From Candidatus Omnitrophota bacterium (GTDB lineage: Bacteria; Omnitrophota; Gorgyraeia; Gygaellales; Profunditerraquicolaceae), in assembly GCA_003598135.1 (NCBI GenBank), contig QZKA01000027.1, forward strand, positions 20,788 to 84,787: a stretch of DNA of 64,000 nt, written 5' to 3'. Position 1 is the first letter of the stretch; each line of letters starts with the position of its first letter. Below, piece after piece: positions 22,369 to 54,383 of this stretch. The notes below the pieces were generated by a model. The model ran no database searches and was not told the origin of the DNA. It worked only from the letters and a program-made list of their open reading frames with translations. A program made the translations under genes and the position numbers.

Positions 22369-22398
22369 CCTGATTGGGTAACGAAAGAGGGCCTGGCA

Positions 22399-23586: not shown

Positions 23587-23606
23587 TTTTTTATGAAGGA
23601 GGTTTT

Positions 23607-25950: not shown

Positions 25951-25953
25951 ACG

Positions 25954-28190: not shown

Positions 28191-28219
28191 TATCGTTTTA
28201 AAACAAAAGAGGCAGGCAA

Positions 28220-29086
28220 ATGAAAGGGATTATATTAGCAGGTGGTAAAGCGACACGTCTCTATCCCATTACCAGGGCTGTGTGCAAACAATTGCTACCG
28301 GTCTATGATAAGCCGATGGTGTATTACCCCCTTTCATTGCTCATGCTTGCCGGCATCAAGGACATTTTGTTGATATCCACTCCTGAGGCGCTCCCCCGTT
28401 TCAAAGACTTGCTTGGCAACGGTTCAGAAATAGGGATCAAAATACGTTTTGCTGAACAACGAACGCCAAGAGGCATAGCGCAGGCATTAACTATCGCAGA
28501 GGGCTTTATCGGAAAAGACAAAGTATGCCTGGTGCTTGGGGATAATGTATTTTTCGGGCAGGGTTTATCCTCGCTTTTGAAAGAAGCAGTACGCCAGAAA
28601 GAAGGGGCAACTATTTTTGGCTATTATGTAAACGACCCTGCACGCTACGGAGTAATTGGGTTCGACCGTAAAGGCGGGGTATCTTCCATCGAGGAGAAGC
28701 CCAAGCGGCCAAAATCAAATTACGTGATCACCGGTATTTATTTTTATGATCATCTTGCCTGCAGCATTGCCAAGGCGCTGAAACCGTCGCAAAGGAAAGA
28801 GTTTGAGATTACCGATGTGAATAGGTATTATTTAGAACGCGGAAAGCTTAAGGTAAAATTGCTGGGTAGGGGGTATGCGTGGCTTGATATGGGAACGTAC
28901 GAGTCCCTAATGGAGGCATCAGAGTTTATTAAGACGATGGAACAGCGGCAGGGTGTCAAGGTCGGCTGCATCGAGGAAGTCGCCTACAAAAAAAGATATA
29001 TCGACGAAAGGCAATTACGTAAACTTGCAAAAGAAATACCTACCAGCTACGGTGACTATTTAAGGCGGTTGCTAAAAAATGAATGA
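28220..29086 (+). CDS. rfbA: Glucose-1-phosphate thymidylyltransferase
   Basis: MKGIILAGGKATRLYPIT...KQLLPVYDKPMVYYPLS is the canonical RmlA N-terminus. Confidence 0.85.
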   Translation: MKGIILAGGKATRLYPITRAVCKQLLPVYDKPMVYYPLSLLMLAGIKDILLISTPEALPRFKDLLGNGSEIGIKIRFAEQRTPRGIAQALTIAEGFIGKDKVCLVLGDNVFFGQGLSSLLKEAVRQKEGATIFGYYVNDPARYGVIGFDRKGGVSSIEEKPKRPKSNYVITGIYFYDHLACSIAKALKPSQRKEFEITDVNRYYLERGKLKVKLLGRGYAWLDMGTYESLMEASEFIKTMEQRQGVKVGCIEEVAYKKRYIDERQLRKLAKEIPTSYGDYLRRLLKNE

Positions 29087-29912
29087 AAGAATACTGATTC
29101 TGGGGAATGGGTATATCGGACAGAGATTGCATGAGGGCTTGGGGTGTGAGGTTTCTGAGCGCAAGATTTACTCGTTAGCTGACGCAGAGGAAGAAATAAA
29201 AAAATTTAAGCCCGCAGTCTTGATTAATGCAATAGGCTATATTGGTAATACGGTTGATGACTGCGAACAGGATAAAGATAAGGCGCTTATGGCCAATGCC
29301 TTTGTCCCGCTTATTCTCGGCGAAGCCGCAATAAGAAACCACATCAAGCTGGTCCATATAAGCAGCGGCTGTATTTATCGGTTCGATTACCTTTGTGATG
29401 ACCCGATTGCGGAAGAGAAGGTCCCGGATTATTTCGACCTTTTCTACAGCCGCACAAAGATATATTCGGAGCAACCCTTGCTCATTCTTTCGAAATCATA
29501 CCCGATTTTGATAGTAAGGATACGTGTGCCGCTTGACAACCGCCCCCACCCTAGAAACCTGCTAGATAAACTCATCAAGTATAAGAAAATTATCGATGTC
29601 CCCAATTCGCTTACCTATGTGCCTGATTTTATCCAGGCAATGAAGCACCTGCTTAAAGTTGATGCCCGGGGTATTTATAACGTAGTGAATAAAGGGAGCT
29701 TAAAGTACCCAGACCTAATGTATGTGTATAAAAAATATGTACCCGCCTTTGAGTATGAGGTAGTGGATCTTAAAAATCTTTCGCTTAAACGCACTAATCT
29801 GATTATGTCGTGCGAAAAACTTGAGAAAACGGGATTCAAGATGAGGAATATCAAGGATGTGTTGGAAGAATGCGTGAGGGAATACTTAAACGCCAGGGGA
29901 TCAACTCGATGA
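29079..29912 (+). CDS. dTDP-4-dehydro-6-deoxyhexose reductase-like SDR (RfbD/RmlD-like)
   Basis: Short 277-aa SDR with ILILGNGYIG. It sits between rfbA and rfbB with overlapping stop/starts. A specific RmlD assignment is tentative. Confidence 0.5.
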   Translation: MNERILILGNGYIGQRLHEGLGCEVSERKIYSLADAEEEIKKFKPAVLINAIGYIGNTVDDCEQDKDKALMANAFVPLILGEAAIRNHIKLVHISSGCIYRFDYLCDDPIAEEKVPDYFDLFYSRTKIYSEQPLLILSKSYPILIVRIRVPLDNRPHPRNLLDKLIKYKKIIDVPNSLTYVPDFIQAMKHLLKVDARGIYNVVNKGSLKYPDLMYVYKKYVPAFEYEVVDLKNLSLKRTNLIMSCEKLEKTGFKMRNIKDVLEECVREYLNARGSTR

Positions 29913-30901
29913 AAAGAGAGAAGTTATTGATTACCGGGGGGGCTGGTTTTATCGGGAGCACTTTCGTGAAGGAAGTTTTACAGGACGGCTTTACCCTGCC
30001 TGTTGTAGTAGATAAGCTTACCTATGCCGGCGACCTCTTGAGGTTGCAGGCAGTAAAAGGCCGTTATGTATTTTATAAAGCCGATATTATCGACAAGCAG
30101 TCCCTTAGGTCTGTTTTTAAAAAAGAGAAGCCGCACGCCGTCGTACATTTTGCCGCAGAGTCGCACGTCGACAGGAGTATCAGGGATGCGAGTACTTTTA
30201 TAGAAACGAATGTCCGCGGAACTCAGGTGCTTGCTGACGTGGCTAGAGAATATAATGTTAAGAGGTTTATTCATATTTCAACCGACGAGGTATACGGAGA
30301 AATTAGAAAAGGGGGTTTTCCCGAATCGCATCCACTATGCCCGAGTTCGCCTTATTCTGCAGCAAAGGCAGCAGCTGACTTGTTGGTGATTTCTTATATC
30401 AGGACGCACGGCTTTCCGGCTATTATAGTCAGGCCCAGTAATATTTATGGCCCCTGGCAATACCCGGAGAAATTAGTACCTTGGGCAGTGCTGTGCCTGC
30501 TTAAAAAGCAAAAAATTCCCGTTTACGGCAGGGGGCAAAACATAAGGGAGTGGCTTTTTGTAGGCGATTGCGTTGCCGGAATACTTGATATTTTAAAAAG
30601 GGGCAGAGCCGGAGAAATCTATAATCTAGGTAGTGGTGAGGAAAGAAAAAATATGGAGGTGGTACAGGCAATCCTTACGCAGGCGCATAAGGGAAGGTCC
30701 TGGATTGTGTTTGTGAAGGACCGGCAAGGCCACGATATCCGCTATAGAATGGATTCCCGTAAGATACGAAAAGAACTCGGATGGAAGCCGTCATTGGATT
30801 TTGAAAAAGGTCTCAAAGCAACGGTTGAGTGGTGCCTGGATAACAGGGAATGGCTTTTGCGCAAATGGCGTTATATCGCGCCATTTTATCATAGAGAATA
30901 A
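29909..30901 (+). CDS. rfbB: dTDP-glucose 4,6-dehydratase
   Basis: LLITGGAGFIGS...VVVDKLTYAGDL matches RmlB. The start at 29909 (MKREK) gives the typical ATGA overlap with the upstream gene; the track's 29870 start is rejected. Confidence 0.85.
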   Translation: MKREKLLITGGAGFIGSTFVKEVLQDGFTLPVVVDKLTYAGDLLRLQAVKGRYVFYKADIIDKQSLRSVFKKEKPHAVVHFAAESHVDRSIRDASTFIETNVRGTQVLADVAREYNVKRFIHISTDEVYGEIRKGGFPESHPLCPSSPYSAAKAAADLLVISYIRTHGFPAIIVRPSNIYGPWQYPEKLVPWAVLCLLKKQKIPVYGRGQNIREWLFVGDCVAGILDILKRGRAGEIYNLGSGEERKNMEVVQAILTQAHKGRSWIVFVKDRQGHDIRYRMDSRKIRKELGWKPSLDFEKGLKATVEWCLDNREWLLRKWRYIAPFYHRE

Positions 30902-31165
30902 ATGTGGCTTGTAATCGGTTCTCTGGCGGCTTGTTGTACCATGTTTGCCTTTATTCCGCAAATCATCAAAGTCGTAAGGACAAAATCCGCTAAAGACGTA
31001 AGCGCTATTACCGTCTTACAGCTTTCTTTCGGGGTGACTTTGTGGATAGCCTACGGCATACACCTTAAAGATGCGGTGATTATCGTTGCAAATAGCATTA
31101 CCCTGTGCAGTACTATTGTGCTTTATTTGCTCTATTTAAGATATAAAGAAGGAAGCCGGCACTAA
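30902..31165 (+). CDS. SemiSWEET / PQ-loop family 3-TM membrane protein
   Basis: An 87-aa, 3-helix protein with the signature FIPQIIKVVRTKS...LW.AYG......IIVAN....L. This fits the bacterial SemiSWEET pattern (F.PQ..K..RT.S / LW..YG / N). Confidence 0.6.
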   Translation: MWLVIGSLAACCTMFAFIPQIIKVVRTKSAKDVSAITVLQLSFGVTLWIAYGIHLKDAVIIVANSITLCSTIVLYLLYLRYKEGSRH

Positions 31166-31228
31166 AAGAGGCCTACGGGGTTTTGTGTTACCATAGTGCG
31201 CATCTTAAAAAAGAAAGCATAGACGACG

Positions 31229-32482
31229 ATGTTTTCACTTGGCAAATTCTTTAAGGGCGGTGACGGGTTTGGCCGCAACGTGCTTGTGGTGTTCTTCGGT
31301 ACTTCCCTGCTCAGTATCTTTAATCTTCTTTATCAGCTCCTTATAGCGCACCGGCTCAGCCCTGTGGATTTCGCCGTATTTAATTCTTTATTATCCCTGT
31401 TTCTCATATTCTCCGCTCCTTTGCTTACCCTGCAGGCTGTAACTGCAAAGTTTGCCGCTGAATTTGCCGCACGCAGCGAGGTCAATAAAATCAAAACCTT
31501 ATTTTCCGGGCTTCTTTTAAAGAGCGTGCTTTTCTCCCTTGGGACTTTTTTTGTCTTTCTTGTATGTGCTCCCCGCATTGCCTCAAGTTTAAAAATACCC
31601 TCTTATGGGCCGGTGTATATGCTTATGTGGTTGGTTGCGTTTGCATGGATTCTGCCCGTATTATTGGGCGGCCTCCAGGGGCTAAAAAAATTTAACTGGT
31701 TCGTATTTTCTTCGATAAGCGGCGGAGGGCTGAAACTGGTTTTGGCATTTGTATTCATTAGTTTTGGCTTCGGCATAAGCGGGGCGCTCGGCGGATATCT
31801 GGTCGCTACTATCGTTACTATCCTTATTGCAATGGTTGCGCTGCGGTCTTTTATCGTTGGGAAGGAGCAATGGGTTTATGTACATTTTAAGGAAATTTAC
31901 AGATATTTCTTCCCCCTCATTATCAGTAACCTCTGTTTTACGGGGCTGGTGAATAGCGATATGGTGTTGGTAAAATACTATTTTAGCCCTGAGAAGGCAG
32001 GCCTTTATTCCCTATCTCAAATGGTCGGAAAGATTTTTTTATTCCTTCCGATGGCTATCAGCGTAGTCATGTTTCCCCATGCCAGTTCCTTAAACGCCAA
32101 GGCGCAAGATGCCCGCCCCGTTCTGAATAAGTCGCTTTTATATGCCACGACCTTATGCGTCGCTGCAATCCTTTTTTATAACCTTTTCCCGGAGCGGACG
32201 CTTATTTTACTTACAGGCAAGATTTACCCGGAGTCGATTTTTGTTGGAAGGCTTTTCAGTGTTTCCATGACCGGCTTTGCATTATCTTTTCTGTTAATGA
32301 ATTATTTTCTCTCCGTTAAGGACCTGCGTTTTATCAAATTCATTTTTATAATTGCGGGTATACAGCTATTGTCGATTTTGATTATTCATCGCAGCCTCGC
32401 AGAGGTCCAGTATATTCTCTGCGTGAGCGCGCTTGTACTTTTTTCATCGTTATTCATATTATCCAGGAAGAGTTCGGCATGA
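31229..32482 (+). CDS. wzx: Wzx-like oligosaccharide/polysaccharide flippase (MOP superfamily)
   Basis: A 417-aa protein with about 12 TM helices and the polysaccharide-biosynthesis-protein topology. Confidence 0.7.
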   Translation: MFSLGKFFKGGDGFGRNVLVVFFGTSLLSIFNLLYQLLIAHRLSPVDFAVFNSLLSLFLIFSAPLLTLQAVTAKFAAEFAARSEVNKIKTLFSGLLLKSVLFSLGTFFVFLVCAPRIASSLKIPSYGPVYMLMWLVAFAWILPVLLGGLQGLKKFNWFVFSSISGGGLKLVLAFVFISFGFGISGALGGYLVATIVTILIAMVALRSFIVGKEQWVYVHFKEIYRYFFPLIISNLCFTGLVNSDMVLVKYYFSPEKAGLYSLSQMVGKIFLFLPMAISVVMFPHASSLNAKAQDARPVLNKSLLYATTLCVAAILFYNLFPERTLILLTGKIYPESIFVGRLFSVSMTGFALSFLLMNYFLSVKDLRFIKFIFIIAGIQLLSILIIHRSLAEVQYILCVSALVLFSSLFILSRKSSA

Positions 32483-33279
32483 AGAACCTGACAACAGAAA
32501 AAGTCTCTATTATCATGCCTGCGTTTAACGAGGCAGAACATATCGTCAATAGCATCAGAGAGACTGCCAAGACTTTTCAGGAATTTGGATGCGCCTGGGA
32601 GTTGATTGTTATTGATGACGGTTCCACCGATTCTACGTTCGAATTGGCAAGATCCCTCTGTAGCGAATTCCCCGGGAATCTTATCGTGAAGAAAAATGCT
32701 CATCGAGCCAGGGGAAAAGGGCGAGCATTCAAAAAGGCGTTTCATTATGTAAGTGGTGATTATGTTGTTTTTTTGGATGCGGATATGGACCTGCATCCTA
32801 TTCAGGTACAAACGCTCTTTGATATCATGAGATTCGATAATGCAGACGTGGTTATCGGTTCAAAGCTACACCCTAACTCGATCGTAAATTATCCAGGGCA
32901 TCGTCGGATAATGAGTCTTGTATATTATTACCTCATTAAGATCTTGTTTAACTTGCCTTGCCGCGATACCCAGACCGGGCTAAAATTATTCAAGACCGAG
33001 GTATTACGTAAAGTCTTTCCGCGCCTATTAGTCAAAAAATTTGCCTACGATTTAGAAGTTTTGGTAAATGCGCACCATCTGGGATTTCAGATTGCTGAGG
33101 CCCCTATAAAGCTTAGTTCTCAGAGGAAGTACGGAAGGATAGGCCTCAGGGCCGTATGTGCCACTACTTGGGATACTCTGGCTATATTTTACCGCATGTA
33201 TGTCTTGAAATATTATGACCGTATCGATTATCATCGCCGTAAAAACCTGGCAAAGGAATTTAGAAGAATGCGTCGTTAG
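32479..33279 (+). CDS. GT2 glycosyltransferase, Dpm1/GtrB-like (polyprenyl-phosphate sugar synthase type)
   Basis: VSIIMPAFNEAEHI...LIVIDDGSTDST and DADMD (DxD). Length 266 aa. Confidence 0.75.
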   Translation: MKNLTTEKVSIIMPAFNEAEHIVNSIRETAKTFQEFGCAWELIVIDDGSTDSTFELARSLCSEFPGNLIVKKNAHRARGKGRAFKKAFHYVSGDYVVFLDADMDLHPIQVQTLFDIMRFDNADVVIGSKLHPNSIVNYPGHRRIMSLVYYYLIKILFNLPCRDTQTGLKLFKTEVLRKVFPRLLVKKFAYDLEVLVNAHHLGFQIAEAPIKLSSQRKYGRIGLRAVCATTWDTLAIFYRMYVLKYYDRIDYHRRKNLAKEFRRMRR

Positions 33280-34189
33280 GTGCATTGAGCTGTCGCAGAG
33301 CAATTTTGAAATCATCATCTTGCCCGACGAACCTTTCTCTTTCGATTTATTGCCAAGGCAGGCATCTGTTCCTATTGCGATTATCCCCACCGGAAGCGTG
33401 ACTCCCGCAAAAAAAAGAGATCTTGGTGTTACGCATGCAAAAGGCGAAATACTGGCATTTTTGGATGATGACGCCTATCCCGACAAAAACTGGCTGGTAA
33501 ACGCAGTGAGGCATTTTCAAGACTCCAAAGTTGCGGCTGTTGCCGGCCCAGCAGTGACACCGACAACTGATTCGATAAAACAGAGGGCAAGCGGGGAGGT
33601 GTATTCCTCGTTTCTGGTGAGCGGCAGTTACGCCTACCGTTATTTTCCGAATCGACAAAGAGAAGTTGACGACTATCCGAGCTGTAATTTCCTGGTCCGT
33701 AAATCCGTAATGGAAGAGATAGGGGGGTTCAATACCAATTTTTGGCCGGGTGAAGATACCAAGCTGTGCTTAGAGATAACGAAGAAACTGCATAAAAAAA
33801 TCACCTACGATCCGAAAGTCCTGGTCTTTCATCACCGCAGGCCCTTGTTTATTCCTCATTTAAAACAAATTGCAAGTTACGCATTGCATCGCGGCTACTT
33901 TGTAAAAAAGTACCCTGAAACTTCTTTAAGGGTTGCATATTTTATACCAAGCGTCTTTCTTGCTGCGCTTGTCATCGGCGCAGTATTTTCTCTATTCTTC
34001 CCAGCCCTAATCAACATTTATATTGCTGGCCTGCTATGTTACTTCGTACTTGTGCTCTTGGAAGCTATACGTAAAAACCCTCGTTTGATTTTTTATGTAT
34101 TCCTTGGGATAATCCTGACGCACCTGACATACGGAGCTTATTTTATAAAAGGCTTATTCCGAAAAAGGCTCCCGGAGGAGGAAGAATGA
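33215..34189 (+). CDS. GT2 glycosyltransferase with a C-terminal transmembrane anchor
   Basis: VSIIIAVKTW...LDDDAYPD (DxD) is the GT-A core. Three predicted C-terminal TM helices follow. It overlaps the upstream GT2 by 65 nt. Confidence 0.65.
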   Translation: MTVSIIIAVKTWQRNLEECVVRCIELSQSNFEIIILPDEPFSFDLLPRQASVPIAIIPTGSVTPAKKRDLGVTHAKGEILAFLDDDAYPDKNWLVNAVRHFQDSKVAAVAGPAVTPTTDSIKQRASGEVYSSFLVSGSYAYRYFPNRQREVDDYPSCNFLVRKSVMEEIGGFNTNFWPGEDTKLCLEITKKLHKKITYDPKVLVFHHRRPLFIPHLKQIASYALHRGYFVKKYPETSLRVAYFIPSVFLAALVIGAVFSLFFPALINIYIAGLLCYFVLVLLEAIRKNPRLIFYVFLGIILTHLTYGAYFIKGLFRKRLPEEEE

Positions 34190-35697
34190 AGGTCATTATC
34201 TCATACCCTCCGCTTGATGCAGCGAAAGGCTGTCCGACTCTCGGCCAGAACAGGCAGTTCCAATATTTTAAAGACCCTACCTTTATTTATCCGGTAGTAC
34301 CGGCACAGGCCGCCACATTACTTAAAAACTCAGGTTTCAAGGTAATCTGGAATGATTGCATTGCCTTGGGCTGGACATATGAGCAGTTTCTAGACTTCGT
34401 AAAAGAGGAAAAGCCTGACTTAATCGCCTTTGAGACCAAAACTCCCGTAATCAAGCAGCATTGGCAGATTATCAATAATATCAAACGACTTTCGTCAGCC
34501 GGCTGCCGTCCGTGGATAGTGCTCTTCGGCGACCACGTGACTGCGCTTCCCGAAGAGTCGTTTCAAAATTCAGAGGTTGATTATGTTCTTACCGGAGGCG
34601 ATTACGACTTTTTGCTGCTTAACCTGTGCAAATTTCTATCTTCTCAACTCAATACTCAATACTCAATACACAATACATCACTAGAGCCCGGAATCTATTA
34701 TCGCGAACATAAAGAAGTAAAAAACACCGGAAAATTCCAGCTCAATCATGACTTGAGCCAACTCCCTTTTATAGACCGTGATCTTACAGGCTGGGAAATG
34801 TACGCGTATCAAAACGGAAACTATAAACGGACTCCGGGGACTTATATTATGAGCGGCAGGGATTGCTGGTGGGCGCGCTGTTCTTTTTGCTCATGGCCGA
34901 CTCTCTATCCGTCGTTTAGGGTAAGAAATATAGATAATGTATTGGATGAAATAGGCATGCTTTTGGAGCGTTACAAGGTACGCGAAATAATGGATGATAC
35001 GGGATGTTTTCCTGCTGGGGATTGGCTTGGAGATTTTTGTTGCGGTTTGCTGAAACGGGGATACGAGAAGAAAATGTACATAGATTGCAATGCCCGGTTC
35101 GGCGCTCTGAGTAAGATTGATTTCAAGTTAATGAGAAAGGCAGGGTTTCGTTTGTTGCTATTTGGCCTTGAGTCCGCCAATCAAAAGACACTCGATAGAA
35201 TAAATAAGAACGTCAAGGTAGAAAGAATGATCGCCGATTGTCAGAATGCCTCCAGGGCAGGCCTCTTTCCACACATCACTATTATGTTTGGCTATCCCTG
35301 GGAATCGTTCGAAGATGCATCCCGAACGCTTCAATTGGGGTCATGGTTGTTGAAAAAGGGATATGCGTACACTATGCAGGCGACTATTGTCATACCATAT
35401 CCCGGGACTCCTTTATTTCAGGAGTGTAAAGAAGAGGGATGGCTTAAGACCGTTGATTGGGATAGGTATGATATGAAAGAAGCAGTGATGCGTATTCCTT
35501 TTGCCGAAGATGCGATGCGCCAGTTGGTACAAGGCATGTATAAAGTCTCTTTCGGCCCTGAGTTTATCGCAAGAAGGTTATTCTCAATCAGAGACACGGA
35601 TGACGTAGCGTATTTCCTCCGTGCTGCAAAAAAAGTGCTCGGGCATATTTTTGACTTTAGGAATAAAAAGTCATGTAATGGAAAAAAGCAAGTATAG
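34186..35697 (+). CDS. Cobalamin-binding (class B) radical SAM protein with a non-canonical Cx4Cx2C cluster motif
   Basis: Has an N-terminal B12-binding-like Rossmann domain and the motif CWWARCSFC in place of the usual CxxxCxxC. A downstream GLESANQKTLD motif is typical of radical SAM proteins. The start overlaps the upstream GT2 stop (ATGA). Confidence 0.7.
   Translation: MKVIISYPPLDAAKGCPTLGQNRQFQYFKDPTFIYPVVPAQAATLLKNSGFKVIWNDCIALGWTYEQFLDFVKEEKPDLIAFETKTPVIKQHWQIINNIKRLSSAGCRPWIVLFGDHVTALPEESFQNSEVDYVLTGGDYDFLLLNLCKFLSSQLNTQYSIHNTSLEPGIYYREHKEVKNTGKFQLNHDLSQLPFIDRDLTGWEMYAYQNGNYKRTPGTYIMSGRDCWWARCSFCSWPTLYPSFRVRNIDNVLDEIGMLLERYKVREIMDDTGCFPAGDWLGDFCCGLLKRGYEKKMYIDCNARFGALSKIDFKLMRKAGFRLLLFGLESANQKTLDRINKNVKVERMIADCQNASRAGLFPHITIMFGYPWESFEDASRTLQLGSWLLKKGYAYTMQATIVIPYPGTPLFQECKEEGWLKTVDWDRYDMKEAVMRIPFAEDAMRQLVQGMYKVSFGPEFIARRLFSIRDTDDVAYFLRAAKKVLGHIFDFRNKKSCNGKKQV
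34649..34676 (+). repeat. Imperfect tandem heptanucleotide repeat (TCAATAC x3 perfect plus one ACAATAC) inside the radical SAM CDS
   Basis: Read directly from the sequence: tcaatac tcaatac tcaatac acaatac. The encoded peptide is NTQYSIHNT. Confidence 0.5.
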
Positions 35698-36703
35698 CTA
35701 TTCAGTCGACGGACATAACCGGCTTCTGATAAAATCCCCAGGAAGCAAAAAAGCTGTTTCCCCCAACGGACAATTCCGGGTAACCAGAGATAACGGACTT
35801 TCGTTTTGGCTCAATGAGCCTCCTTCCTGGAGAAAAGAAAACAACCTTCCTAAGAAAATTACTTTTACCGGAACCTGGCAGCTGGATGAAAAGAACGGCC
35901 TGGAGTTCATTCTGGATAAAAGCAGATATCAAAATGCAGGAGAGAAGATTAGCTTTAAAGGCAAGCTCTTTGCGGTTGACGGAAATTCTGTCGCCTTTTC
36001 GATTTCCAGTTATAAAGAAGCGGCTTTGCGCTTGAGCCGTATCCAGACATTCAGGCTTGCCGGCTTATGGCAGGCAGATAAATATAACCGCCTCAATTTT
36101 ATTATCAGCCGGAAATTGCATTCTGATACGCTTACATTTGAGGGCGGCTGGCAGATCAACAAAAACCAGCAGATTGTGTATATATGCGAGAAGACAGGCC
36201 TCAAGAACAAAACCAGGATTTCTGAAGAAGTGGTATTGCGGGGTTATTGGCAGATAGTAAATAATAGAAGGTTAGTATATATACTTTCCCATAACGGCGA
36301 TTCCTGTCTTGAGTTCCGCGTCCAGCTCGAAACACCTAATCTCTACCCTCAAAAGGGAAAAATAAAGTTTCGTCTTGGAGTAGGCCTTAAAAAGAACAGG
36401 CCACCTGTGCCAAAAACTATTTGTCTTTACGGAGAGTGGAAGTTTTCCCACAAGTGGGGGTTAGTTTTTGCAATGGATTACGGGGCAGGAACAGTACACA
36501 ACATTGAGTTCGGTTTTACAGTTGCAGTACATAACGCAGACAGTATTTCGGTAAGTTTGACAAACAAACAAAACGAACCCCTTGGTATTACGGTTACTTT
36601 TACGCATCGTTTTTTAAAAGAACATGGCGCGCAAGGTTTTATCCGGTTAAAACCGGAAAGGAAAAGGTCGGGCCTGGAAGCAGGATTTACTTTTCCGTTT
36701 TAA
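35678..36703 (+). CDS. Uncharacterised cytoplasmic protein with five internal G-x-W-Q beta-hairpin-like repeats
   Basis: The repeats are TGTWQLDEKNGLEFIL, AGLWQADKYNRLNFII, EGGWQINKNQQIVYIC, RGYWQIVNNRRLVYIL and YGEWKFSHKWGLVFAM. It has no signal peptide. The start is taken at MEKSK (35678), overlapping the upstream gene by 20 nt. Confidence 0.5.
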   Translation: MEKSKYSYSVDGHNRLLIKSPGSKKAVSPNGQFRVTRDNGLSFWLNEPPSWRKENNLPKKITFTGTWQLDEKNGLEFILDKSRYQNAGEKISFKGKLFAVDGNSVAFSISSYKEAALRLSRIQTFRLAGLWQADKYNRLNFIISRKLHSDTLTFEGGWQINKNQQIVYICEKTGLKNKTRISEEVVLRGYWQIVNNRRLVYILSHNGDSCLEFRVQLETPNLYPQKGKIKFRLGVGLKKNRPPVPKTICLYGEWKFSHKWGLVFAMDYGAGTVHNIEFGFTVAVHNADSISVSLTNKQNEPLGITVTFTHRFLKEHGAQGFIRLKPERKRSGLEAGFTFPF

Positions 36704-36876
36704 AGCCATTTCTGCAGCATAAAAAGCTTTTAAAAGTTCATAACGTATGGGATAATAATAAGTTAAATACCTTTTAAAACAAAGAATCTTTTAGAAAAAT
36801 GCGGCTGTACGGTTAATAGGGATAAACAGGCGCGTTGCTGGTTTATAATAAATTTTGCTTTGTAGAGGAGCCTAAA

Positions 36877-37905
36877 GTGAAAAAGATTAATTTAGGGATA
36901 ATCGGGTGTGGGCATTGGGGGCCGAATTATGTGAGGAACTTTAGTACGATGCCTGAAGCAAGAGTTGTATGGGTAAGCGACCTGAAGGAAGAAAGGCTCA
37001 CGCATATCAGGCAATTGTTCCCTGGCGTAAAGGTTTCCAAGGATAGTAATCGCGTCATCAACGACGATACAATTGACGCAGTAGTGATTGCTACCCCGAC
37101 GGTTACCCACTACAAAATGGCCCTACGGTGCCTGCAGGCGGGTAAACACGTGTTGGTTGAGAAGCCGATGACTACCGCTATCAAGGAGGCAGAAACACTC
37201 CTCAGTCTTGCCTCAAGGTGCAAAAAGACGTTGATGGTAGGCCATACCTTCACCTATAACAGTGCAGTGCAGGCAATAAAGGAACTTATCGGCCAGGACA
37301 AATTGGGCAGGCTTTACTATCTCTATTCTTCGCGGACCAATTTAGGGCCGTTACGCAGCGACGTGAATGTGTTATGGGATTTAGCTCCGCATGACGTCTC
37401 TGTATTTTCTTATCTGCTTGGCTGCCTGCCGGTCAAAGTAAGCGCTCAAGGCGCATCTTATTTGCGCAAGGGTATCGAGGACGTGGTGTTCATTACGCTC
37501 TACTTCCCGCGTAATATAATCGCCGGTATACATCTTAGCTGGCTTAATCCCCGCAAGGTCAGAGAGATAACGATTGTGGGGAACAAAAAGATGCTGGTGT
37601 TTGACGATCTCAACACTGCTAATCCCATTTATCTCTATAGTAAAGGAGTTATCCGTAAACAGATATCTCTTCCTTACTACGATACATTCGGTGAATTCCA
37701 GTATATCATCCGCGACGGTGACGCAACTATTCCTAAGGTGGCAATGAAGGAGCCTCTTACGGCTGAATGCCGCCACTTTTTGGAATGCGTTATGACAAGA
37801 AAAGAGCCCCATAGTAGCGGCAGGGACGGCTTAAATGTAGTACGGGTGCTTGCAGCTATCCAGAGTTCCCTGGAAGATAAAGGCCGCTTAAAGGAGGTGC
37901 GTTAA
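36877..37905 (+). CDS. Gfo/Idh/MocA-family NAD(P)-dependent sugar oxidoreductase (WbpB-like), copy 1
   Basis: KINLGIIGCGHWGPNYVRNF Rossmann fold plus the EKPMT family motif. A GTG start at 36877 sits 6 nt after a GAGGAG RBS and is preferred over the track's ATG at 36835. Confidence 0.75.
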   Translation: MKKINLGIIGCGHWGPNYVRNFSTMPEARVVWVSDLKEERLTHIRQLFPGVKVSKDSNRVINDDTIDAVVIATPTVTHYKMALRCLQAGKHVLVEKPMTTAIKEAETLLSLASRCKKTLMVGHTFTYNSAVQAIKELIGQDKLGRLYYLYSSRTNLGPLRSDVNVLWDLAPHDVSVFSYLLGCLPVKVSAQGASYLRKGIEDVVFITLYFPRNIIAGIHLSWLNPRKVREITIVGNKKMLVFDDLNTANPIYLYSKGVIRKQISLPYYDTFGEFQYIIRDGDATIPKVAMKEPLTAECRHFLECVMTRKEPHSSGRDGLNVVRVLAAIQSSLEDKGRLKEVR

Positions 37906-38565
37906 TTGAAAACAGCAGCCAATAAATCAGGAAGAGTTCGGTTTGGAAAGGATTGTTTGATTGACGAAGGAGTAATCTTGGGCTATCGTTCCGGCAGAAA
38001 GGGCTTGACCGGTATTTTGGTTATCGGCGCAGGAGCCCATTTGCGCAGTGGCACTGTTATTTATCAATCGAGCATAATAGGGAATCATCTAGAGACAGGC
38101 CATAATGTCGTAATCAGGGAACAGAACCATATTGGAAATAACTTTGCAATCTGGAATAATTCAACGGTTGATTACGGCTGTAAAATAGGAAATAATGTAA
38201 AAATTCATTCTAATTGTTATATAGCCCAATTTACCGTTCTTGAAGATGATGTATTTCTTGCGCCAGGCACTAGCATAGCCAATGACCTTCACCCGGGCTG
38301 TGACTTTTCTAAAAAGTGCCTTCGCGGCCCGACTATAAAAAAGGGAGCGCAGATAGGGGTCGGCTGCACCCTGCTTCCTTATGTTACGATTGGGGAAGGG
38401 GCCTTGATTGGCGCGGGCAGTGTAGTAACCAAGGATATACCTGCGCACTCGGTTGCCTACGGGAACCCAGCCAGGGTAGCAGGCTCTGCTTTTGATCTTA
38501 CGTGTAGATTCGAATTCACCGATAAGCCTTATCGCGAGGCGACCAAGGCTAAGCGTCGTAAGTAA
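37906..38565 (+). CDS. Left-handed beta-helix (hexapeptide-repeat) acetyltransferase, WbpD-like
   Basis: Hexapeptide repeats ([28 protein letters not shown]...[25 protein letters not shown]). It follows the Gfo oxidoreductase with a 0-nt gap. Confidence 0.75.
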
Positions 38566-38661
38566 TATTTTAGAATTCTGGCCACACCTTGGACTAAAGC
38601 AATAGGCGGTAGGCGCATAACGGCAAATTCTCAACACCTTCAAAAATTATTTGATTGTACT

Positions 38662-39969
38662 ATGCCTGAACAGCCGGTTGTATTAATTAATCCCCCAAGC
38701 CCTTTTTTGATTAACCAAAAAAGCTTTTCTCCGCTTGGCATACTCTATCTTGCCGCCGAATTGGAAAAAAATAACCTACCCGTGCGGGTTGTCGATTTGG
38801 CGGACTCAGAGAATGATATGGAGGCGGCCTTACGTTCGTATTTGGATGCCGAGCTATTTGGTATCAGCGCAACAACCCCGCAATATCCTTATGCAAGAGC
38901 GATAAAGGATGCGATCAAGAGAGCGCACCCTGAGGCGAAAGTAGTATTGGGTGGCGTTCATGGAACAGACCTCACTGAAAAGTGTCTTAATGACGGGTTT
39001 GATATCGTGGTTAAGGGAGAAGGTGAGAAGGCAATAGTTAAGATCGTGCACGATTTCGCAACGCATTCCCTTGATTACAGGACTTTGCAATTGCCTTATG
39101 AAAAAGATATGGATTCTTTGCCTCTTCCTGCGCGGCACCTGATTCCCCTGAAGGAGTACGGTTATGATATTGATGGTGTACCTGGGGCAAGCGTTATTAC
39201 CAGCAGGGGCTGTCCGTATCATTGCGTTTTTTGTTCAAAAGGCGTCTGGGAACAGGGGGTAAGGCTTCATAGCGTTGAGTACGTCGTAAGGGAGCTGGTC
39301 TCAATCATACAAAACTATACGATTAGCCATTTTCTTTTCCTTGATGATGCCATTAATATTGATAGAAACAGGTTGGTGCGGTTATGCACTGCGATAAAAC
39401 CGCTTGGAATAAAATGGCGTTGCTATGCGCGGGCGGATTTTCACGCCAAGGGTATGCTTATTGCGATGAAGGAAGCAGGTTGCGTGGAGATAGGTGTGGG
39501 CATTGAGAGCGGTTCGCAGAAGATATTAGACATCGTAGGCAAAGGGAGCACTGTGGAAAAGAATACCAGTTTTGTTAAAGAATGCAAATCTGTTGGCGTG
39601 GCGGTGAATGCCTTTGTGATGATTGGGCTACCCGGTGAGACGCATGAAACGGTCGAAGCCACAAAAAAATGGATAGGAGATGCAATGCCGGATAAGTTTG
39701 GTTTTAATATTTTTATGCCTTATGCTGGCACTCCGGTCTGGCGCAACCTAGAAAAATATGATTTGTGTATCGCAGATATTCCCGAGGAACATAGCTGGGT
39801 AAAGGGCAGGCCAGGCCAGCACCATTGTTATGTCTCGACAAACGAGTTGAGCTCTAGTGAAATCTTAAGGTTGTTCAACGAGTTGTTTGATTATTACACA
39901 CAATTGTTACATTGGAGGCCCGGAGTAGGCAGGGTAAAGCAGACTGTCCCGGGTAACACAGTATGCTGA
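38662..39969 (+). CDS. Cobalamin-binding (class B) radical SAM protein, copy 2
   Basis: N-terminal B12-binding domain (VVLINPPSP...PLGILYLAAEL) and a canonical cluster motif, RGCPYHCVFCSK. Confidence 0.85.
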   Translation: MPEQPVVLINPPSPFLINQKSFSPLGILYLAAELEKNNLPVRVVDLADSENDMEAALRSYLDAELFGISATTPQYPYARAIKDAIKRAHPEAKVVLGGVHGTDLTEKCLNDGFDIVVKGEGEKAIVKIVHDFATHSLDYRTLQLPYEKDMDSLPLPARHLIPLKEYGYDIDGVPGASVITSRGCPYHCVFCSKGVWEQGVRLHSVEYVVRELVSIIQNYTISHFLFLDDAINIDRNRLVRLCTAIKPLGIKWRCYARADFHAKGMLIAMKEAGCVEIGVGIESGSQKILDIVGKGSTVEKNTSFVKECKSVGVAVNAFVMIGLPGETHETVEATKKWIGDAMPDKFGFNIFMPYAGTPVWRNLEKYDLCIADIPEEHSWVKGRPGQHHCYVSTNELSSSEILRLFNELFDYYTQLLHWRPGVGRVKQTVPGNTVC

Positions 39970-41483
39970 TAGGCGCGTTGTTGTTTTTTGTGGGGTATCT
40001 GTTTCAGTGCTGGCCGCGGTTTTTTAACCCTTATTTCGGGGTGGATGTATGGAGGAATCTTTCTATCGCCGATGAAATCAGAAAGTATAAGCGGCTGCCC
40101 AGGCGCAATCTTCCCAAATATATGTTAAAGGGGCCGTTTGACTATCCGCCGCTGCTCAATATATTTCTGTCGCTTTTTTCTAAAAAGTGGCTAGAAAAAT
40201 ACCAGGGTTTTATCGCGCCTCTTTTTGATGCAATCACCGGATTTATCCTTTTTTCATTCACCCTTTTCCTTACGAGAGAAGTCGCAGTTGCGCTCCTGGC
40301 GCAGCTTCTTTTTGTTACTAATCCCCTTGCAGCTATGGAAAACGCAAGCCTTACTGCGAGAAGCCTGGGTAATTTGACTTTTTCATTGACATTCCTTTTT
40401 ATTATTCTTTTCACCGTATTCCATTCATGGGCCTATTTTCTGTTGGCAATCATTTTTGGATTTTTGGTGATTTTTGCCCAGAAAATGGCATCCCAGGCCT
40501 TGATTATGATATCCGTTATCTTTATGCTCTTCAGAATGGATGTTTCCTATGTTCTTATCGTTTCTCTAAGTATACTGGTTGCACTCTTATTGGCAGGCGA
40601 TTTGTATGTCCGGATCGCCAGTGGACATCTTTCTGTGCTTAGATACTTTAGAAAGATTCTTGATAATCGCTATGCGCATCAGGTATCAGGCAATATTGCA
40701 TTAAAAGGCGGGAATGATTTCATCGATAAAGTTAAGTCTTATGTGAATAAACAACCGTTTTTGGCAATGCTGGCCAGTGCTCCTCTTGTCACCATGGGGT
40801 TGGTGCTGTCCTTGTGGGGACTAATTTTTATACCGAAGAGTTTTTCGATACCCCCCGAGCTTTATCTTTACCATATATTGTTTCAATTTTGTCTATGGCT
40901 AATAGTACTGTATTACTTTGGGATTCTTACCGCGCAAGTGCGCGCTATACAATTTTTAGGCGAGGGCATGAAATACTTGGTCTTTGCAAGTTTCCCTGCT
41001 TCTTTTATCGTGGCATACGTGTCGTTTTATGAAATCCGGTTAAACGCTAATTTCATTCCTTTAGTGTTTAGTTTGGTTGTTGTCGCAATGAGCGTAGCCC
41101 AAACGGTTTTCCTTCAGAAGAAAGGGATCGTCAACGACCGGCAGCGCACCCTTACCCCGGTTTTGCGGCAAGTTATGGATTTTTTACAGAATGAGCCTGG
41201 CGAAATCCGTCTGGCGACTATACCTTTTTCGCTCTCGGATATCATTGCCTATTTTACAAAGTGTAATGTTTTTTCATCCGATTCGGCGTTTGTCTTGGGC
41301 AATGATCCTGCGTATACTGACTTTTATCCGGTGTTAAAGAGGCCGCTTGAAGAAATCCTAAGCGTCCACAATATCAATTATTTGCTGATAGATAAGAACT
41401 ATGTGAACCCTGAGGCTTTGCAACTTGCGGCGGGCTCAAAGATTGTCCTTGAGAGAGAGAACCTGTGTCTGATAAAACGCTAA
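39963..41483 (+). CDS. Polytopic membrane protein (about 12 TM helices plus a C-terminal soluble domain of about 110 aa); possible GT-C-fold glycosyltransferase or polymerase/ligase-like protein
   Basis: The first extracytoplasmic loop reads GVDVWRNLSIADEIRKYKR, a DE..R(Y/K) motif reminiscent of the ArnT/PMT loop-1 DE(x)RY. There is no WWDYG motif. Topology only; no confident family assignment. Confidence 0.4.
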   Translation: MLIGALLFFVGYLFQCWPRFFNPYFGVDVWRNLSIADEIRKYKRLPRRNLPKYMLKGPFDYPPLLNIFLSLFSKKWLEKYQGFIAPLFDAITGFILFSFTLFLTREVAVALLAQLLFVTNPLAAMENASLTARSLGNLTFSLTFLFIILFTVFHSWAYFLLAIIFGFLVIFAQKMASQALIMISVIFMLFRMDVSYVLIVSLSILVALLLAGDLYVRIASGHLSVLRYFRKILDNRYAHQVSGNIALKGGNDFIDKVKSYVNKQPFLAMLASAPLVTMGLVLSLWGLIFIPKSFSIPPELYLYHILFQFCLWLIVLYYFGILTAQVRAIQFLGEGMKYLVFASFPASFIVAYVSFYEIRLNANFIPLVFSLVVVAMSVAQTVFLQKKGIVNDRQRTLTPVLRQVMDFLQNEPGEIRLATIPFSLSDIIAYFTKCNVFSSDSAFVLGNDPAYTDFYPVLKRPLEEILSVHNINYLLIDKNYVNPEALQLAAGSKIVLERENLCLIKR

Positions 41484-43754: not shown

Positions 43755-44483
43755 ATGGATGGACGGCTAAACCAGAAAGAACAAGTAGGTGTAAGTATTA
43801 TTCTGCCCGCTTTCAACGAGCGGAATAACCTTAAAACGGTGGTTGAATCCGTGATTGCCTCTGTTGCTTGCGCTGTGAATACGTACGAAGTTATCATAGT
43901 TGATGACGGAAGCAATGACGGGACCGGTGAAGTGGCGCGTTTATTGACAAGCCTGCCAAATGTAAAGTTTTTTCGGCACGAGGCCAATTTGGGGATGGGT
44001 GAGGCGGTCAAGACAGGCATCCGTCACGCTGTGTTTCCGATAGTAATGGATATCCCTTGCGATAATCAGTTTAATGCGAAAGATATTTTGTCATTTATCG
44101 AAAAAATTAAAGTCGCCGATATCGTGGTGGGGTATCGGATCAATAAAGCCCAGGGATTCAGGCGGAAATTTTTTAGCGGATTCAATATCCTGCTGCTTAA
44201 GGTACTTTTTGGGCTCAGGCTTAAGGACCCTACATGGGTGAAAATGTGCAGGAAACAAATTTTTGACAGCATCGGAATAGAATCTAAAGGATTTTTCTGG
44301 GAGACGGAAGTTCTGGTAAAGGCTAAGAATCAAGGGCTAAGAATCGAAGAAGTGCCCACGACCATGCAGCCAAGGCTTAGCGGCCAGTCAAAGGGAAATA
44401 GTTTTTTTAGGGCTGTTGATGTATTGTTCTCAATGTTACGCTTGAAAACTGCTTTTGTATTTTCAAATTTTCCGAAGAGATGA
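43755..44483 (+). CDS. GT2 glycosyltransferase, Dpm1-like (polyprenyl-phosphate sugar synthase type)
   Basis: VSIILPAFNERNNL...VIIVDDGSNDGT. Length 242 aa. The start abuts the Gfo-2 stop (TAGATG). Confidence 0.8.
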   Translation: MDGRLNQKEQVGVSIILPAFNERNNLKTVVESVIASVACAVNTYEVIIVDDGSNDGTGEVARLLTSLPNVKFFRHEANLGMGEAVKTGIRHAVFPIVMDIPCDNQFNAKDILSFIEKIKVADIVVGYRINKAQGFRRKFFSGFNILLLKVLFGLRLKDPTWVKMCRKQIFDSIGIESKGFFWETEVLVKAKNQGLRIEEVPTTMQPRLSGQSKGNSFFRAVDVLFSMLRLKTAFVFSNFPKR

Positions 44484-46907: not shown

Positions 46908-46910
46908 CGT

Positions 46911-54381: not shown

Positions 54382-54383
54382 CT

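Follow-up and report, generated by a model that had tools for sequence, protein, structure and literature searches.

Two GT2 glycosyltransferase genes in a surface-glycan operon of a Candidatus Omnitrophota MAG are each followed directly by a radical SAM (rSAM) gene, and the question arises whether such a pair is a functional unit and on which sugar it may act. The window analyzed, the whole stretch of 64,000 nucleotides, contains at least 40 kb of this operon. The two pairs are designated GT2_A plus rSAM_A (pair A) and GT2_B plus rSAM_B (pair B). According to an earlier reading made from the sequence only, both GT2s were Dpm1-like, both rSAMs were of class B, a Gfo/Idh/MocA oxidoreductase was located near each pair, and the same unit occurred twice. 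The open reading frames and junctions of this sequence-only reading were all confirmed (Table 1): ATGA is common to the end of GT2_A and the start of rSAM_A and likewise to GT2_B and rSAM_B, and the TAG of the oxidoreductase gene Gfo2 directly precedes the ATG of GT2_B, which gives TAGATG.

Gene content of the window and relation of the two pairs

The operon encodes five B12-type and four SPASM-type rSAMs and is rich in nucleotide-sugar enzymes (RmlA/B/D, ManC, UGDH, SDRs, Gfo), together with a hexapeptide acyltransferase. Gfo/Idh/MocA genes of the window start at 36835, 42741, and 51553. No initiating phosphoglycosyltransferase was found in the window, and the cluster extends past the window end. 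The chromosomal site downstream of PGM–PlsC–S1–TyrRS is common to the window and to one related locus, L003.

Table 1. Positions of the genes discussed, given in window coordinates
Feature	Position	Strand	Basis
PQ-loop/SemiSWEET-like protein, 87 aa, beside the cassette	30902–31165	+	Pfam PQ-loop and MtN3_slv
Wzx-like MOP flippase, first cassette gene	31229–32482	+	Pfam Polysacc_synt, 38 bits (GA 28.2)
GT2, 266 aa, without TM helix, Dpm1/AglJ/ArnC-like catalytic domain	32479–33279	+	Pfam Glycos_transf_2, 101 bits
GT2_A, membrane GT2, 324 aa, first GT2 of the sequence-only reading	33215–34189	+	Pfam Glycos_transf_2
rSAM_A, radical SAM enzyme, 503 aa, hallmark gene of the cassette	34186–35697	+	Pfam Radical_SAM, 46.6 bits (GA 29.5)
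Polytopic membrane protein, 506 aa, then DUF362 plus 4Fe-4S ferredoxin protein, upstream of Gfo2	39963–42724	+	Hydropathy; DUF362 and Fer4
Gfo/Idh/MocA oxidoreductase 2 (Gfo2), conserved partner of rSAM_B	42741–43754	+	Pfam
GT2_B, soluble Dpm1/DPMS/ArnC-like GT2, 242 aa, optional block member	43755–44483	+	Pfam Glycos_transf_2; PDB matches
rSAM_B, canonical class-B-type rSAM, 463 aa	44480–45871	+	Pfam B12-binding, 72.9 bits; Radical_SAM, 77.8 bits
SPASM-rSAM, SDR epimerase/dehydratase, SPASM-rSAM, travelling with rSAM_B	45852–48915	+	Pfam

Evaluation of the two adjacencies needs to consider how densely the genes are packed. Neighboring genes overlap at 21 of 39 junctions, seven of them by 4 nt, and two or more GT2-to-B12-rSAM adjacencies arose in 19% of permutations of 29 genes that included five GT2 and five B12-rSAM genes (P≈0.19). 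The pattern inside the window alone is not beyond chance; it takes other genomes to exceed chance, which they do for pair A only.

No significant similarity was found between GT2_A and GT2_B, and the two rSAMs have an identity of 27%. These sequence comparisons contradict the claim of a single unit seen twice: neither pair is a repeat of the other. A search for GT2–B12-rSAM fusions, which had been suggested as a check of the linkage, yielded none in the top 120 homologues of each protein. The one fusion found is a 688-aa protein from an Omnitrophota glycan locus, in which a membrane GT2 similar to GT2_A is joined with an rSAM of the SPASM type, not the B12 type.

Pair A as part of a conserved four-gene cassette

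Positions 31229 to 35697 of the window contain a cassette of four genes, encoding a Wzx flippase, a soluble Dpm1-like GT2, GT2_A, and rSAM_A. This cassette stays together in most of the Candidatus Omnitrophota genomes sampled, where it heads a hypervariable surface-glycan locus. The sample consisted of 80 species-representative genomes, the best 80 of at least 470 that encode an rSAM_A relative, and nearly all of them were labelled Omnitrophota. Some of the loci bear the recorded taxon labels Planctomycetia or Nitrospirota.

The gene immediately before the rSAM_A orthologue was a GT2_A orthologue in 63 of the 71 evaluable loci, which became 64 of 71 with one additional overlapping case. The spacing between stop and start was −4 nt in 24 of 69 pairs, −1 nt in 7, and between −17 and +19 nt in 48. 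Orthologues of the soluble Dpm1-like GT2 (median identity 63%) directly preceded GT2_A in 52 of 62 loci. The cassette included a Wzx homologue (median identity 38%) in 51 of 56 evaluable loci, with the gene upstream of the rSAM gene in 44 and just downstream of it in 7. The flanks vary between loci; a homologue of the PQ-loop protein was present there in 27 of 80 loci, and a Gfo gene near the pair was conserved in just 6 of 31, so that the proposed association with an oxidoreductase did not hold for pair A. The conserved cassette around rSAM_A is devoid of nucleotide-sugar enzymes and offers only the two GT2s and the flippase as partners. Because the adjacency is conserved in 64 of 71 species genomes, chance is excluded for pair A, and the functional linkage of a GT2 with a B12-type rSAM is real and conserved in this case. 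A description of the cassette was not found in the literature. Its role is probably the building and chemical tailoring of a lipid-linked surface sugar.

The flippase matches positions 2 to 272 of the 274 positions of its Pfam profile, above threshold. The GT2 encoded next to it had its best PDB matches to ArnC (1.5e-16) and DPMS (5mlz, 1.3e-15) and its best NCBIfam matches to AglJ, GpgS, and ArnC, all of them far below the cut-offs, and is a candidate polyprenyl-phosphate sugar synthase.

GT2_A was rejected as an enzyme of the Dpm1/GtrB/ArnC type, since its closest relatives in sequence and structure are not DPMS, GtrB, or ArnC. It does possess a DXD-type GT-A domain with an invariant D84-D85-D86 and a C-terminal membrane anchor, but both features are also found in synthase-like GT2s and do not discriminate between these types. 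The model predicts a minimal cellulose/hyaluronan-synthase-like fold, composed of the synthase-type GT-A domain, an interface helix, and three C-terminal membrane helices (residues 240 to 261, 264 to 287, and 289 to 315), which bear invariant His/Tyr residues. Of the hallmarks of processive membrane synthases such as BcsA, HAS, NodC, and PgaC, neither a QxxRW acceptor-binding motif nor a multi-helix translocation channel was found in sequence or model; GT2_A contains the conserved residues HHRR...Q218...H225-R-G instead of QxxRW and reached 26.7 bits with the NCBIfam model PgaC_IcaA, which has a cut-off of 422. The synthase-like fold leaves open whether GT2_A may perform a short processive polymerization instead of a single transfer. 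GT2_A goes in this respect part of the way toward the processive GT2s to which the Dpm1 assignment had been opposed, and GT2_B stays Dpm1-like.

rSAM_A belongs to a large and well-conserved family, with more than 120 homologue clusters at 65 to 88% identity and about 66% identity across the sampled phylum. The assignment of both rSAMs to class B stands for rSAM_B, with both domains above threshold and a CX3CX2C motif, and is less certain for rSAM_A. For the B12-binding domain of Pfam, which has a GA of 32.1, the window protein reached only 28.0 bits, and four intein-bearing homologues scored 34 to 40 bits. Alignment of the profiles with hhalign gave a probability of 100 for the match to the rSAM_B family from residue 40 onward, following an N-terminal insertion at residues ~8 to 39 that this family does not have. 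The invariant cluster motif of rSAM_A is C227-x4-C232-x2-C235, a CX4CX2C rather than a CX3CX2C motif. Inteins in members of the family are inserted at this Cys motif and at a GGDYDFLL motif, which indicates that both sites are strongly constrained.

The best fold matches of the rSAM_A model were AprD4, MgmA, OxsB, and TsrM, with AprD4 (PDB 6fd2) at the top (Foldseek E 1e-19, TM 0.69/0.75), so that the fold resembles that of sugar- or nucleoside-modifying B12-type rSAMs such as AprD4, which acts on paromamine, and OxsB. The best NCBIfam model was HpnJ (TIGR03471), matched over the full length with 131.4 bits at a cut-off of 577.6. As AprD4, which does not bind cobalamin, and ArsL demonstrate, cobalamin binding does not follow from a B12-type fold by itself (PMC12931638). 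rSAM_A may be classified among the B12-type radical SAM enzymes as an atypical member, and its cobalamin dependence is putative.

Pair B and its oxidoreductase partner

GT2_B resembles the Dpm1-type enzymes over its whole catalytic domain, with matches to DPMS (5mlz, E 1.2e-17, residues 10 to 228) and to ArnC (about 1e-9, residues 13 to 230). Its best NCBIfam models were PpgS, AglJ, and ArnC, below the cut-offs (64.6 bits versus 370 for PpgS and 46.3 versus 529 for ArnC), and the Dol-P-hexose transferase cut-off was likewise not reached. The CX3CX2C motif of rSAM_B is CPFECIFC at residue 195, and the identity of its homologues drops fast, from 87 to 61, 55, 53 and further to 45%.

Eight contexts of rSAM_B orthologues were compared. 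A Gfo gene was located at most two genes upstream of the rSAM_B orthologue in six of them, in agreement with the proposed association, and a GT2_B orthologue directly upstream in four. L168 and L007 are syntenic but have no GT2_B in the position before rSAM_B, and in L006 the adjacency of the two is inverted, so that the adjacency is not conserved for pair B as it is for pair A. The order rSAM_B–SPASM–SDR is repeated in L171 and L168, and L007 has rSAM_B–SPASM–further B12-rSAM–SDR. Upstream, L168 agrees with the window in the order of a B12-rSAM, a 502-aa protein without a Pfam match, DUF362, Gfo, and rSAM_B; the corresponding 506-aa membrane protein of the window contains several hydrophobic segments and had no Pfam match even at E≤10.

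A block for sugar tailoring recurs around rSAM_B in the order Gfo/Idh/MocA–[optional Dpm1-like GT2]–B12-rSAM–SPASM-rSAM–SDR. The constant partner of rSAM_B is the oxidoreductase and not the GT2, and pair B is a loose, optional neighborhood. Genes for GT-C proteins (YfhO, PMT_2, DUF2079) are present in L006, L007, L168, and L170, and the Dpm1-like GT2 of the block probably supplies a polyprenyl-phosphate sugar donor to periplasmic GT-C enzymes such as those of these related loci.

Possible pathways and comparison with known systems

A pathway for the tailoring of a lipid-linked glycan is the best explanation for the cassette, with a probability of roughly 45%. It builds on the gene order, the tight coupling, the family assignments, and the conservation, and proposes from these a carrier, an order of steps, and a chemistry. 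The soluble Dpm1-like GT2 would load a sugar onto a membrane lipid carrier, most likely polyprenyl phosphate, and GT2_A would lengthen this lipid-bound sugar on the cytoplasmic side of the membrane. The rSAM_A gene is translationally coupled to that of GT2_A, and its product would tailor the lipid-linked glycan by radical chemistry, for which deoxygenation/dehydration, C-methylation, and ring contraction are candidates, and Wzx would flip the product outward. All NCBIfam matches were far below the curated cut-offs. In a bolder and rather unlikely version, a conserved Omnitrophota envelope glycan would be primed on polyprenyl-monophosphate, an archaeal logic like that of AglJ/AglG/AglR replacing the phosphoglycosyltransferase start, and the CX4CX2C rSAM, possibly independent of cobalamin, would rewrite the lipid-bound sugar into a deoxy, C-branched, or carbocyclic form. 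Radical SAM chemistry on a polyprenyl-phosphate-linked sugar would then be seen for the first time, as an envelope trait that defines the phylum.

Because the evidence is one of gene adjacency, tailoring before transfer is not separable from tailoring after it, and a soluble nucleotide sugar may be the substrate of rSAM_A instead. In this somewhat unlikely case, nucleotide sugars would be modified in the cytoplasm by rSAM_A and its fellow rSAMs of the locus before the GT2s use the modified donors, and the genes would be adjacent because a transferase is coexpressed with the enzyme that makes its donor. The abundance of nucleotide-sugar enzymes in the locus agrees with this, as does the Gfo–rSAM_B–SPASM–SDR block, which persists without a GT2 as expected for a soluble intermediate. 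The cassette around rSAM_A, however, lacks such enzymes, and its rSAM gene is coupled most tightly to that of a membrane GT2. A fusion of a membrane GT2 with an rSAM also exists, and NDP-sugars are not the substrates of AprD4 and OxsB, which are closest to rSAM_A in structure.

Alternatively, the cassette may produce a stable envelope glycolipid rather than feed a glycan polymer, with rSAM_A turning the sugar into a carbocyclic or acid-stable head group as in the HpnI/HpnJ hopanoids or the Cds calditol lipids. Such precedents have been reviewed (PMC13459092), HpnJ is the best full-length NCBIfam model, the ring-contracting OxsB is among the top fold matches, and the identity across the sampled phylum is far above that of typical O-antigen genes. 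This explanation is nevertheless quite improbable: the HpnJ score is less than its cut-off requires, hopanoid or other lipid-synthesis genes are not located nearby, the Dpm1-like GT2 and Wzx point to a polyprenyl-phosphate carrier, and the cassette always heads a glycan locus.

Very unlikely is the pathway of the sequence-only reading, in which each GT2 would form a monosaccharide linked to polyprenyl phosphate, and this Und-P sugar would be C-methylated by the class B rSAM encoded directly downstream with the assistance of Gfo. The fold of GT2_A partly refutes it for pair A, the Gfo near that pair is not conserved, the pairs are unrelated in sequence, and methylase chemistry is putative for both rSAMs; the properties of pair B, a Dpm1/ArnC-like GT2 directly upstream of a canonical B12-binding rSAM in half of the contexts, are in its favor, but syntenic relatives have lost or inverted this adjacency. 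Finally, mere packing of genes in a crowded operon rich in both families, although in line with the permutation result and the many overlapping junctions, is hardly credible, being refuted for pair A by the survey of genomes and only partly excluded for pair B by the four of eight contexts.

Among known systems, gentamicin tailoring employs GenD2, a Gfo/Idh/MocA protein, together with the B12-rSAM C-methylases GenD1 and GenK. A Gfo-family dehydrogenase accompanied by a B12-rSAM in sugar tailoring recalls Gfo2 and rSAM_B, which is a resemblance only, and the product here is a cell-surface glycan and not an aminoglycoside. Similarity to Dpm1, DPMS, GtrB, and ArnC concerns the catalytic domains of GT2_B and the soluble cassette GT2, plus the GT-C users of such donors in related loci. 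Different from these enzymes, both GT2s are without TM helices and far below the NCBIfam equivalog cut-offs, and GT2_A, which is coupled to rSAM_A, is of another type. Compared to the Pyrobaculum membrane mannosyltransferase PcManGT (PDB 6yv7) and the hyaluronan and cellulose synthases, with an identity of about 15%, GT2_A is without QxxRW and has only three C-terminal helices, which leaves no obvious translocation channel.

AprD4, the radical SAM 1,2-diol dehydratase of apramycin biosynthesis, modifies a sugar and has an N-terminal Rossmann domain similar to a B12 domain, a feature that rSAM_A also appears to have. It partners with the reductase AprD3, whereas the cassette contains no conserved reductase; moreover, AprD4 acts on a free pseudodisaccharide, is 15 to 16% identical to rSAM_A, and its NCBIfam model gave no match to rSAM_A at E≤1e-5.

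The statement of the sequence-only reading that no precedent was known for such rSAMs acting on Und-P sugars is too strong, since HpnI (GT2)/HpnK/HpnJ (B12-type rSAM) of the hopanoids and Cds include rSAMs assigned to lipid-linked hexoses, albeit not Und-P sugars (PMC13459092). The Omnitrophota cassette differs from HpnI/HpnK/HpnJ in having no deacetylase and in opening a glycan locus with two GT2s and Wzx; rSAM_A stands apart by its CX4CX2C motif and N-terminal insertion, and no hpn or shc genes were found in the window or related loci. The common feature of the Hpn and Cds systems and the proposed pathway would be that a glycosyltransferase puts a hexose onto a membrane lipid and an rSAM remodels it, and HpnJ is at the same time the best curated model for rSAM_A.

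The four-gene cassette is a conserved, translationally coupled module

The reading frames given by the sequence-only reading for two pairs of a GT2 glycosyltransferase and a B12-type (class-B-type) radical SAM protein, GT2_A/rSAM_A (pair A) and GT2_B/rSAM_B (pair B), were found as described, each pair with an ATGA overlap, and so was the junction upstream of pair B, where the TAG of the gene for the Gfo/Idh/MocA oxidoreductase Gfo2 directly precedes the ATG of GT2_B. A GGAGG box is located within the final codons of GT2_A, and Pfam assigned Glycos_transf_2 to both GT2s. Inside the window, the pair pattern is not more than chance: when 29 genes, including five for GT2s and five for B12-rSAMs, were permuted, 19% of the permutations had at least two GT2-to-rSAM adjacencies. 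A total of 21 of the 39 junctions in the operon overlap, 7 of these by 4 nt. The two pairs are not copies of one unit: GT2_A and GT2_B gave no significant similarity on comparison, and rSAM_A and rSAM_B are 27% identical, yet clearly homologous at profile level. A promoter and terminator scan of positions 22300 to 39000 yielded no callable operon boundary; promoter-like matches (41 versus a shuffle mean of 27.3, sd 5.8) were above expectation but scattered within genes, and terminator-like matches were about as many as expected.

Features of the window. Only the start is indicated for single radical SAM genes.
Feature	Position	Strand	Product
RmlA-, RmlD-, RmlB-like genes	28220-30901	+
PQ-loop/SemiSWEET-like gene	30902-31165	+	87 aa
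Wzx-like flippase (cassette)	31229-32482	+
Dpm1-like GT2 (cassette)	32479-33279	+	266 aa
GT2_A (cassette)	33215-34189	+	324 aa
rSAM_A (cassette)	34186-35697	+	503 aa
Repeat protein	35621-36703	+
Polytopic membrane protein	39963-41483	+	506 aa
DUF362-ferredoxin	41465-42724	+
Gfo2	42741-43754	+
GT2_B	43755-44483	+	242 aa
rSAM_B	44480-45871	+	463 aa
Amidotransferase sub-block	54351-59605	+
B12-type radical SAM genes (five)	34186, 38662, 44480, 50017, 60589	+
SPASM-type radical SAM genes (four)	45852, 47860, 59602, 62045	+

A Candidatus Omnitrophota MAG contains the identical rSAM_A sequence. More than 120 homologue clusters (90% identity clustering) were found for rSAM_A, 65 to 88% identical to the window copy, with a similar picture for GT2_A (57 to 89%), and three long contigs carried, consecutively, a Wzx, two GT2s (the first about 265 aa, the second about 290 to 345 aa) and an rSAM (about 500 aa), within differing flanks. 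When each species was represented by a single genome, at least 470 genomes had an rSAM_A relative, and the best 80 of these, almost all labelled Omnitrophota, were used for neighbourhood counts. For pair A, the co-occurrence of GT2 and rSAM across genomes, proposed as a check, was borne out in this set: of 71 evaluable loci, 63 have a GT2_A orthologue immediately upstream of the rSAM and one more has it overlapping, five have it 1 to 3 kb away, and only two lack it. Of 62 loci, 52 have the first cassette GT2 immediately upstream of GT2_A, and a Wzx homologue was within the cassette in 51 of 56. In 48 of 69 pairs, the distance from the GT2_A stop to the rSAM start falls within −17 to +19 nt, with 24 pairs at −4 nt and 7 at −1 nt. 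Median identity to the window copies was 66% for the rSAM, 63% for the first GT2, 56% for GT2_A and 38% for Wzx. Flippase, Dpm1-like GT2, membrane synthase-like GT2 and rSAM form a conserved, translationally coupled module. A Gfo gene, named as a neighbour of pair A as well, is not conserved there (6 of 31 loci).

In the window and in L003, a homologous locus from another genome, the cassette follows a common PGM–PlsC–S1–TyrRS block. Between the two GT2 genes of the cassette there is a 65-nt overlap, read in different frames, so that the sequence at the GT2_A start also encodes the basic tail that ends the first GT2; an overlap of about 60 to 65 nt was also present in loci L002 and L004 and in many of the 80 loci. 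The PQ-loop gene adjoining the cassette, possibly encoding a small flippase or sugar transporter, has a homologue flanking the cassette in 27 of the 80 loci, often directly 3' of the rSAM. In the window, this 3' position is occupied by the gene of the repeat protein (probable start near 35678), which has no domain match, contains five copies of "G-x-W-Q/K ... N ... L-x-F/Y-I" at an irregular spacing of 27 to 64 residues, and has a homologue in 17 of the 80 loci.

The check for GT2–rSAM fusions suggested from the sequence alone returned one, of the SPASM type, and none among the 120 top-ranking homologues of either rSAM_A or GT2_A. This 688-aa protein (locus L172, 16354-18420, Ga0378408_0001269, Omnitrophota) joins a GT2_A-like membrane GT2, aligning with its helices to GT2_A residues 3-306, to a Fer4_12/SPASM-type rSAM that aligns to the window protein starting at 62045. 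The surrounding 21 kb contain eleven radical SAM genes in total, the match of the first gene being partial at the locus end. Homologues of rSAM_A with 640 to 972 aa, considered as GT2 fusions, are actually intein-bearing rSAMs.

Enzymes of the cassette

Within the cassette, the Dpm1-like enzyme is the first GT2, which has no TM helix and is nearest to ArnC, DPMS and AglJ. GT2_A had been assigned to the same type, which was not so: DPMS, ArnC and GtrB scored 15.0, 14.7 and 13.5 against it. Its model (pLDDT 90) combines a GT-A domain with an interface helix and, at the C-terminus, three long helices; DDD, the GED catalytic region and conserved His, Arg and Gln residues are retained, and a QxxRW motif is absent from GT2_A.

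rSAM_A is the hallmark enzyme of the cassette, a radical SAM protein without a characterised close relative. Pfam matched Radical_SAM; the B12-binding match, at 28.0 bits, fell short of its gathering score (32.1), and no curated family cut-off was reached. The best family was HpnJ, with 131 bits versus a cut-off of 578, and with the hpn context absent as well, rSAM_A was rejected as an HpnJ orthologue. Invariant in the rSAM_A family are CX4CX2C, the other eight radical SAM proteins of the window having CX3CX2C, and an N-terminal insertion, KG..L.QNRQ.Q.F. The rSAM_A model (pLDDT 76) matched AprD4 best, followed by MgmA, OxsB, TsrM and CysS. AprD4 is a sugar diol-dehydratase that binds no cobalamin (PMC12931638), so that "class B" is a statement on the fold and not on the cofactor.

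Several rSAM_A homologues contain inteins (P0361, P0362, P0365, P0373, P0376, P0407 and P0493); the window copy does not. Of six homologues scanned for domains, four matched Intein_splicing, LAGLIDADG_3 and Radical_SAM of Pfam, P0407 the first two without Radical_SAM, and P0493 LAGLIDADG_3 only. As judged by eye, the insertions are at the third Cys of CX4CX2C, including P0376 from outside the domain scan, at the first Cys in P0362, and just ahead of the invariant TGGDYDFLL in P0407. The sites that inteins occupy are usually those under the strongest constraint in important proteins.

Pair B and the glycan locus

GT2_B matched DPMS (5mlz) at an E value of 1e-17 across the whole catalytic domain, and also ArnC, in agreement with its assignment as Dpm1-like, and rSAM_B possesses both Radical_SAM and B12-binding (Pfam). 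Identity of rSAM_B homologues falls fast (87, 61, 55, 53 ... 45%), and eight contexts, the window included, were compared.

Gene order around rSAM_B orthologues, with identity to rSAM_B.
Locus	Identity	Order
Window		Gfo–GT2–rSAM–SPASM–SDR–SPASM
L171	55%	Gfo–GT2–rSAM–SPASM–SDR–SPASM
L005	61%	Gfo–GT2–rSAM–DUF362
L006	51%	Gfo–rSAM–GT2
L007	53%	Gfo–rSAM–SPASM–...–SDR, GT2 absent between
L168	53%	Gfo–rSAM–SPASM–...–SDR, GT2 absent between
L169	49%	amidotransferase–rSAM
L170	46%	PMT_2–GT2–rSAM

From these orders, the neighbourhood claimed for pair B stood for Gfo, at most two genes upstream in six of eight, but not for GT2, directly upstream in just four of eight; SPASM followed downstream in four, with SDR directly behind or one gene later. 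We take rSAM_B to be a probable part of a Gfo-centred sugar-tailoring block, in which GT2 would be an optional neighbour. The specific reading from the sequence alone was only partly right as a whole: the linkage of pair A held, the type of GT2_A and the adjacency in pair B did not. A metagenome scan with the rSAM_B alignment was uninformative on orthologues; 77 of 80 returned loci were just 28 to 38% identical because the patterns are generic for B12-rSAMs (RGCP[FY]xCxFC), and GT2, Gfo, SPASM or DUF362 neighbours were almost lacking in 47 evaluable loci. YfhO, PMT_2 and DUF2079 genes (GT-C) occur in several pair B loci; GT-C enzymes use polyprenyl-phosphate sugars.

L168 repeats the window order of B12-rSAM, protein of about 500 aa without Pfam match, DUF362 and Gfo. 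The DUF362 protein carries a 2x[4Fe-4S] ferredoxin domain at its C-terminus. In both L005 and L168, such a protein adjoins the Gfo/B12-rSAM block, and in L007 it is encoded about 5 kb upstream; the protein is a candidate partner of the rSAMs or their dedicated electron donor. The polytopic membrane protein, without a Pfam match even at E≤10, could be an unrecognised polymerase or GT-C-type transferase, and a 502-aa protein of L168, also without Pfam match, is alike by position and size. Pfam at E≤10 gave nothing usable for the domain-less frames starting at 35621, 39963 and 56265.

One glycan locus, with every gene on the + strand, extends from about 23600 to where the window ends; on its 5' side are housekeeping genes, among them LptD, S1, TyrRS and those of the type IV pilus. 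The locus contains nucleotide-sugar genes (SDRs, ManC, UDP-Glc/GDP-Man dehydrogenase, RmlA/D/B-like), five GT2s, four of them Dpm1-like, one GT4, the PQ-loop protein and the flippase, three Gfo/Idh/MocA paralogues 44% identical to one another, a hexapeptide acyltransferase, a UDP-GlcNAc 2-epimerase, AsnB-like, ATP-grasp and PHP proteins, and the DUF362-ferredoxin. A phosphoglycosyltransferase (Bac_transf or Glycos_transf_4) was not among the annotated frames of window positions 1-64000, which is no proof of absence since the locus continues past the window end. RmlC (3,5-epimerase) was not seen in the window, the RmlD-like match to its Pfam family is weak (44 bits), and the product of the Rml-like genes may be a 6-deoxyhexose other than L-rhamnose. 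The sub-block encodes an AsnB-like amidotransferase, a 509-aa protein of no assigned family, an ATP-grasp enzyme and a PHP phosphoesterase, and may serve to amidate a sugar acid or to decorate it with amino acids.

Nine radical SAM genes are distributed across about 30 kb (34186-63196) of this operon, the SPASM genes at 45852 and 47860, 47% identical, flanking an SDR. Such richness is common to some related loci (L004 to L007, L168, L172); as a general trait of cassette flanks it was rejected, the median within ±8 kb being the rSAM_A orthologue alone (31 loci).

Proposed route and comparison with known systems

In the route proposed for the cassette, the Dpm1-like GT2 would load polyprenyl phosphate, GT2_A would extend the lipid-linked sugar, rSAM_A would tailor it at the membrane, and Wzx would export the product. 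Radical SAM proteins acting on lipid-linked hexoses have a precedent in HpnI/HpnK/HpnJ and Cds (PMC13459092). The main alternative is a soluble nucleotide sugar tailored by the rSAM before transfer, and the gene order is compatible with such a pre-transfer step as well. By analogy to HpnJ and Cds, the substrate may, in second place, be the head group of a stable glycolipid.

Omnitrophota are widespread nanobacteria, mostly uncultured, and we know of no envelope chemistry for them. No description of the cassette was found in the searchable literature (Omnitrophota with radical SAM or glycosyltransferase; B12-rSAM with undecaprenyl). An identity of about 60 to 66% over hundreds of species, together with the overlapping genes, points to a conserved envelope component and not to a strain-variable antigen. 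With four genes in 4.5 kb, the cassette is compact enough for heterologous expression, and it could double as a phylogenetic marker for the phylum. Radical SAM tailoring tied to glycosyl transfer on lipids is already known, and glycolipid radical chemistry has so far comprised two special cases, hopanoid cyclitol ethers and calditol; if rSAM_A acts on a lipid-linked sugar, as in the proposed route, this chemistry would reach mainstream bacterial surface-glycan assembly.
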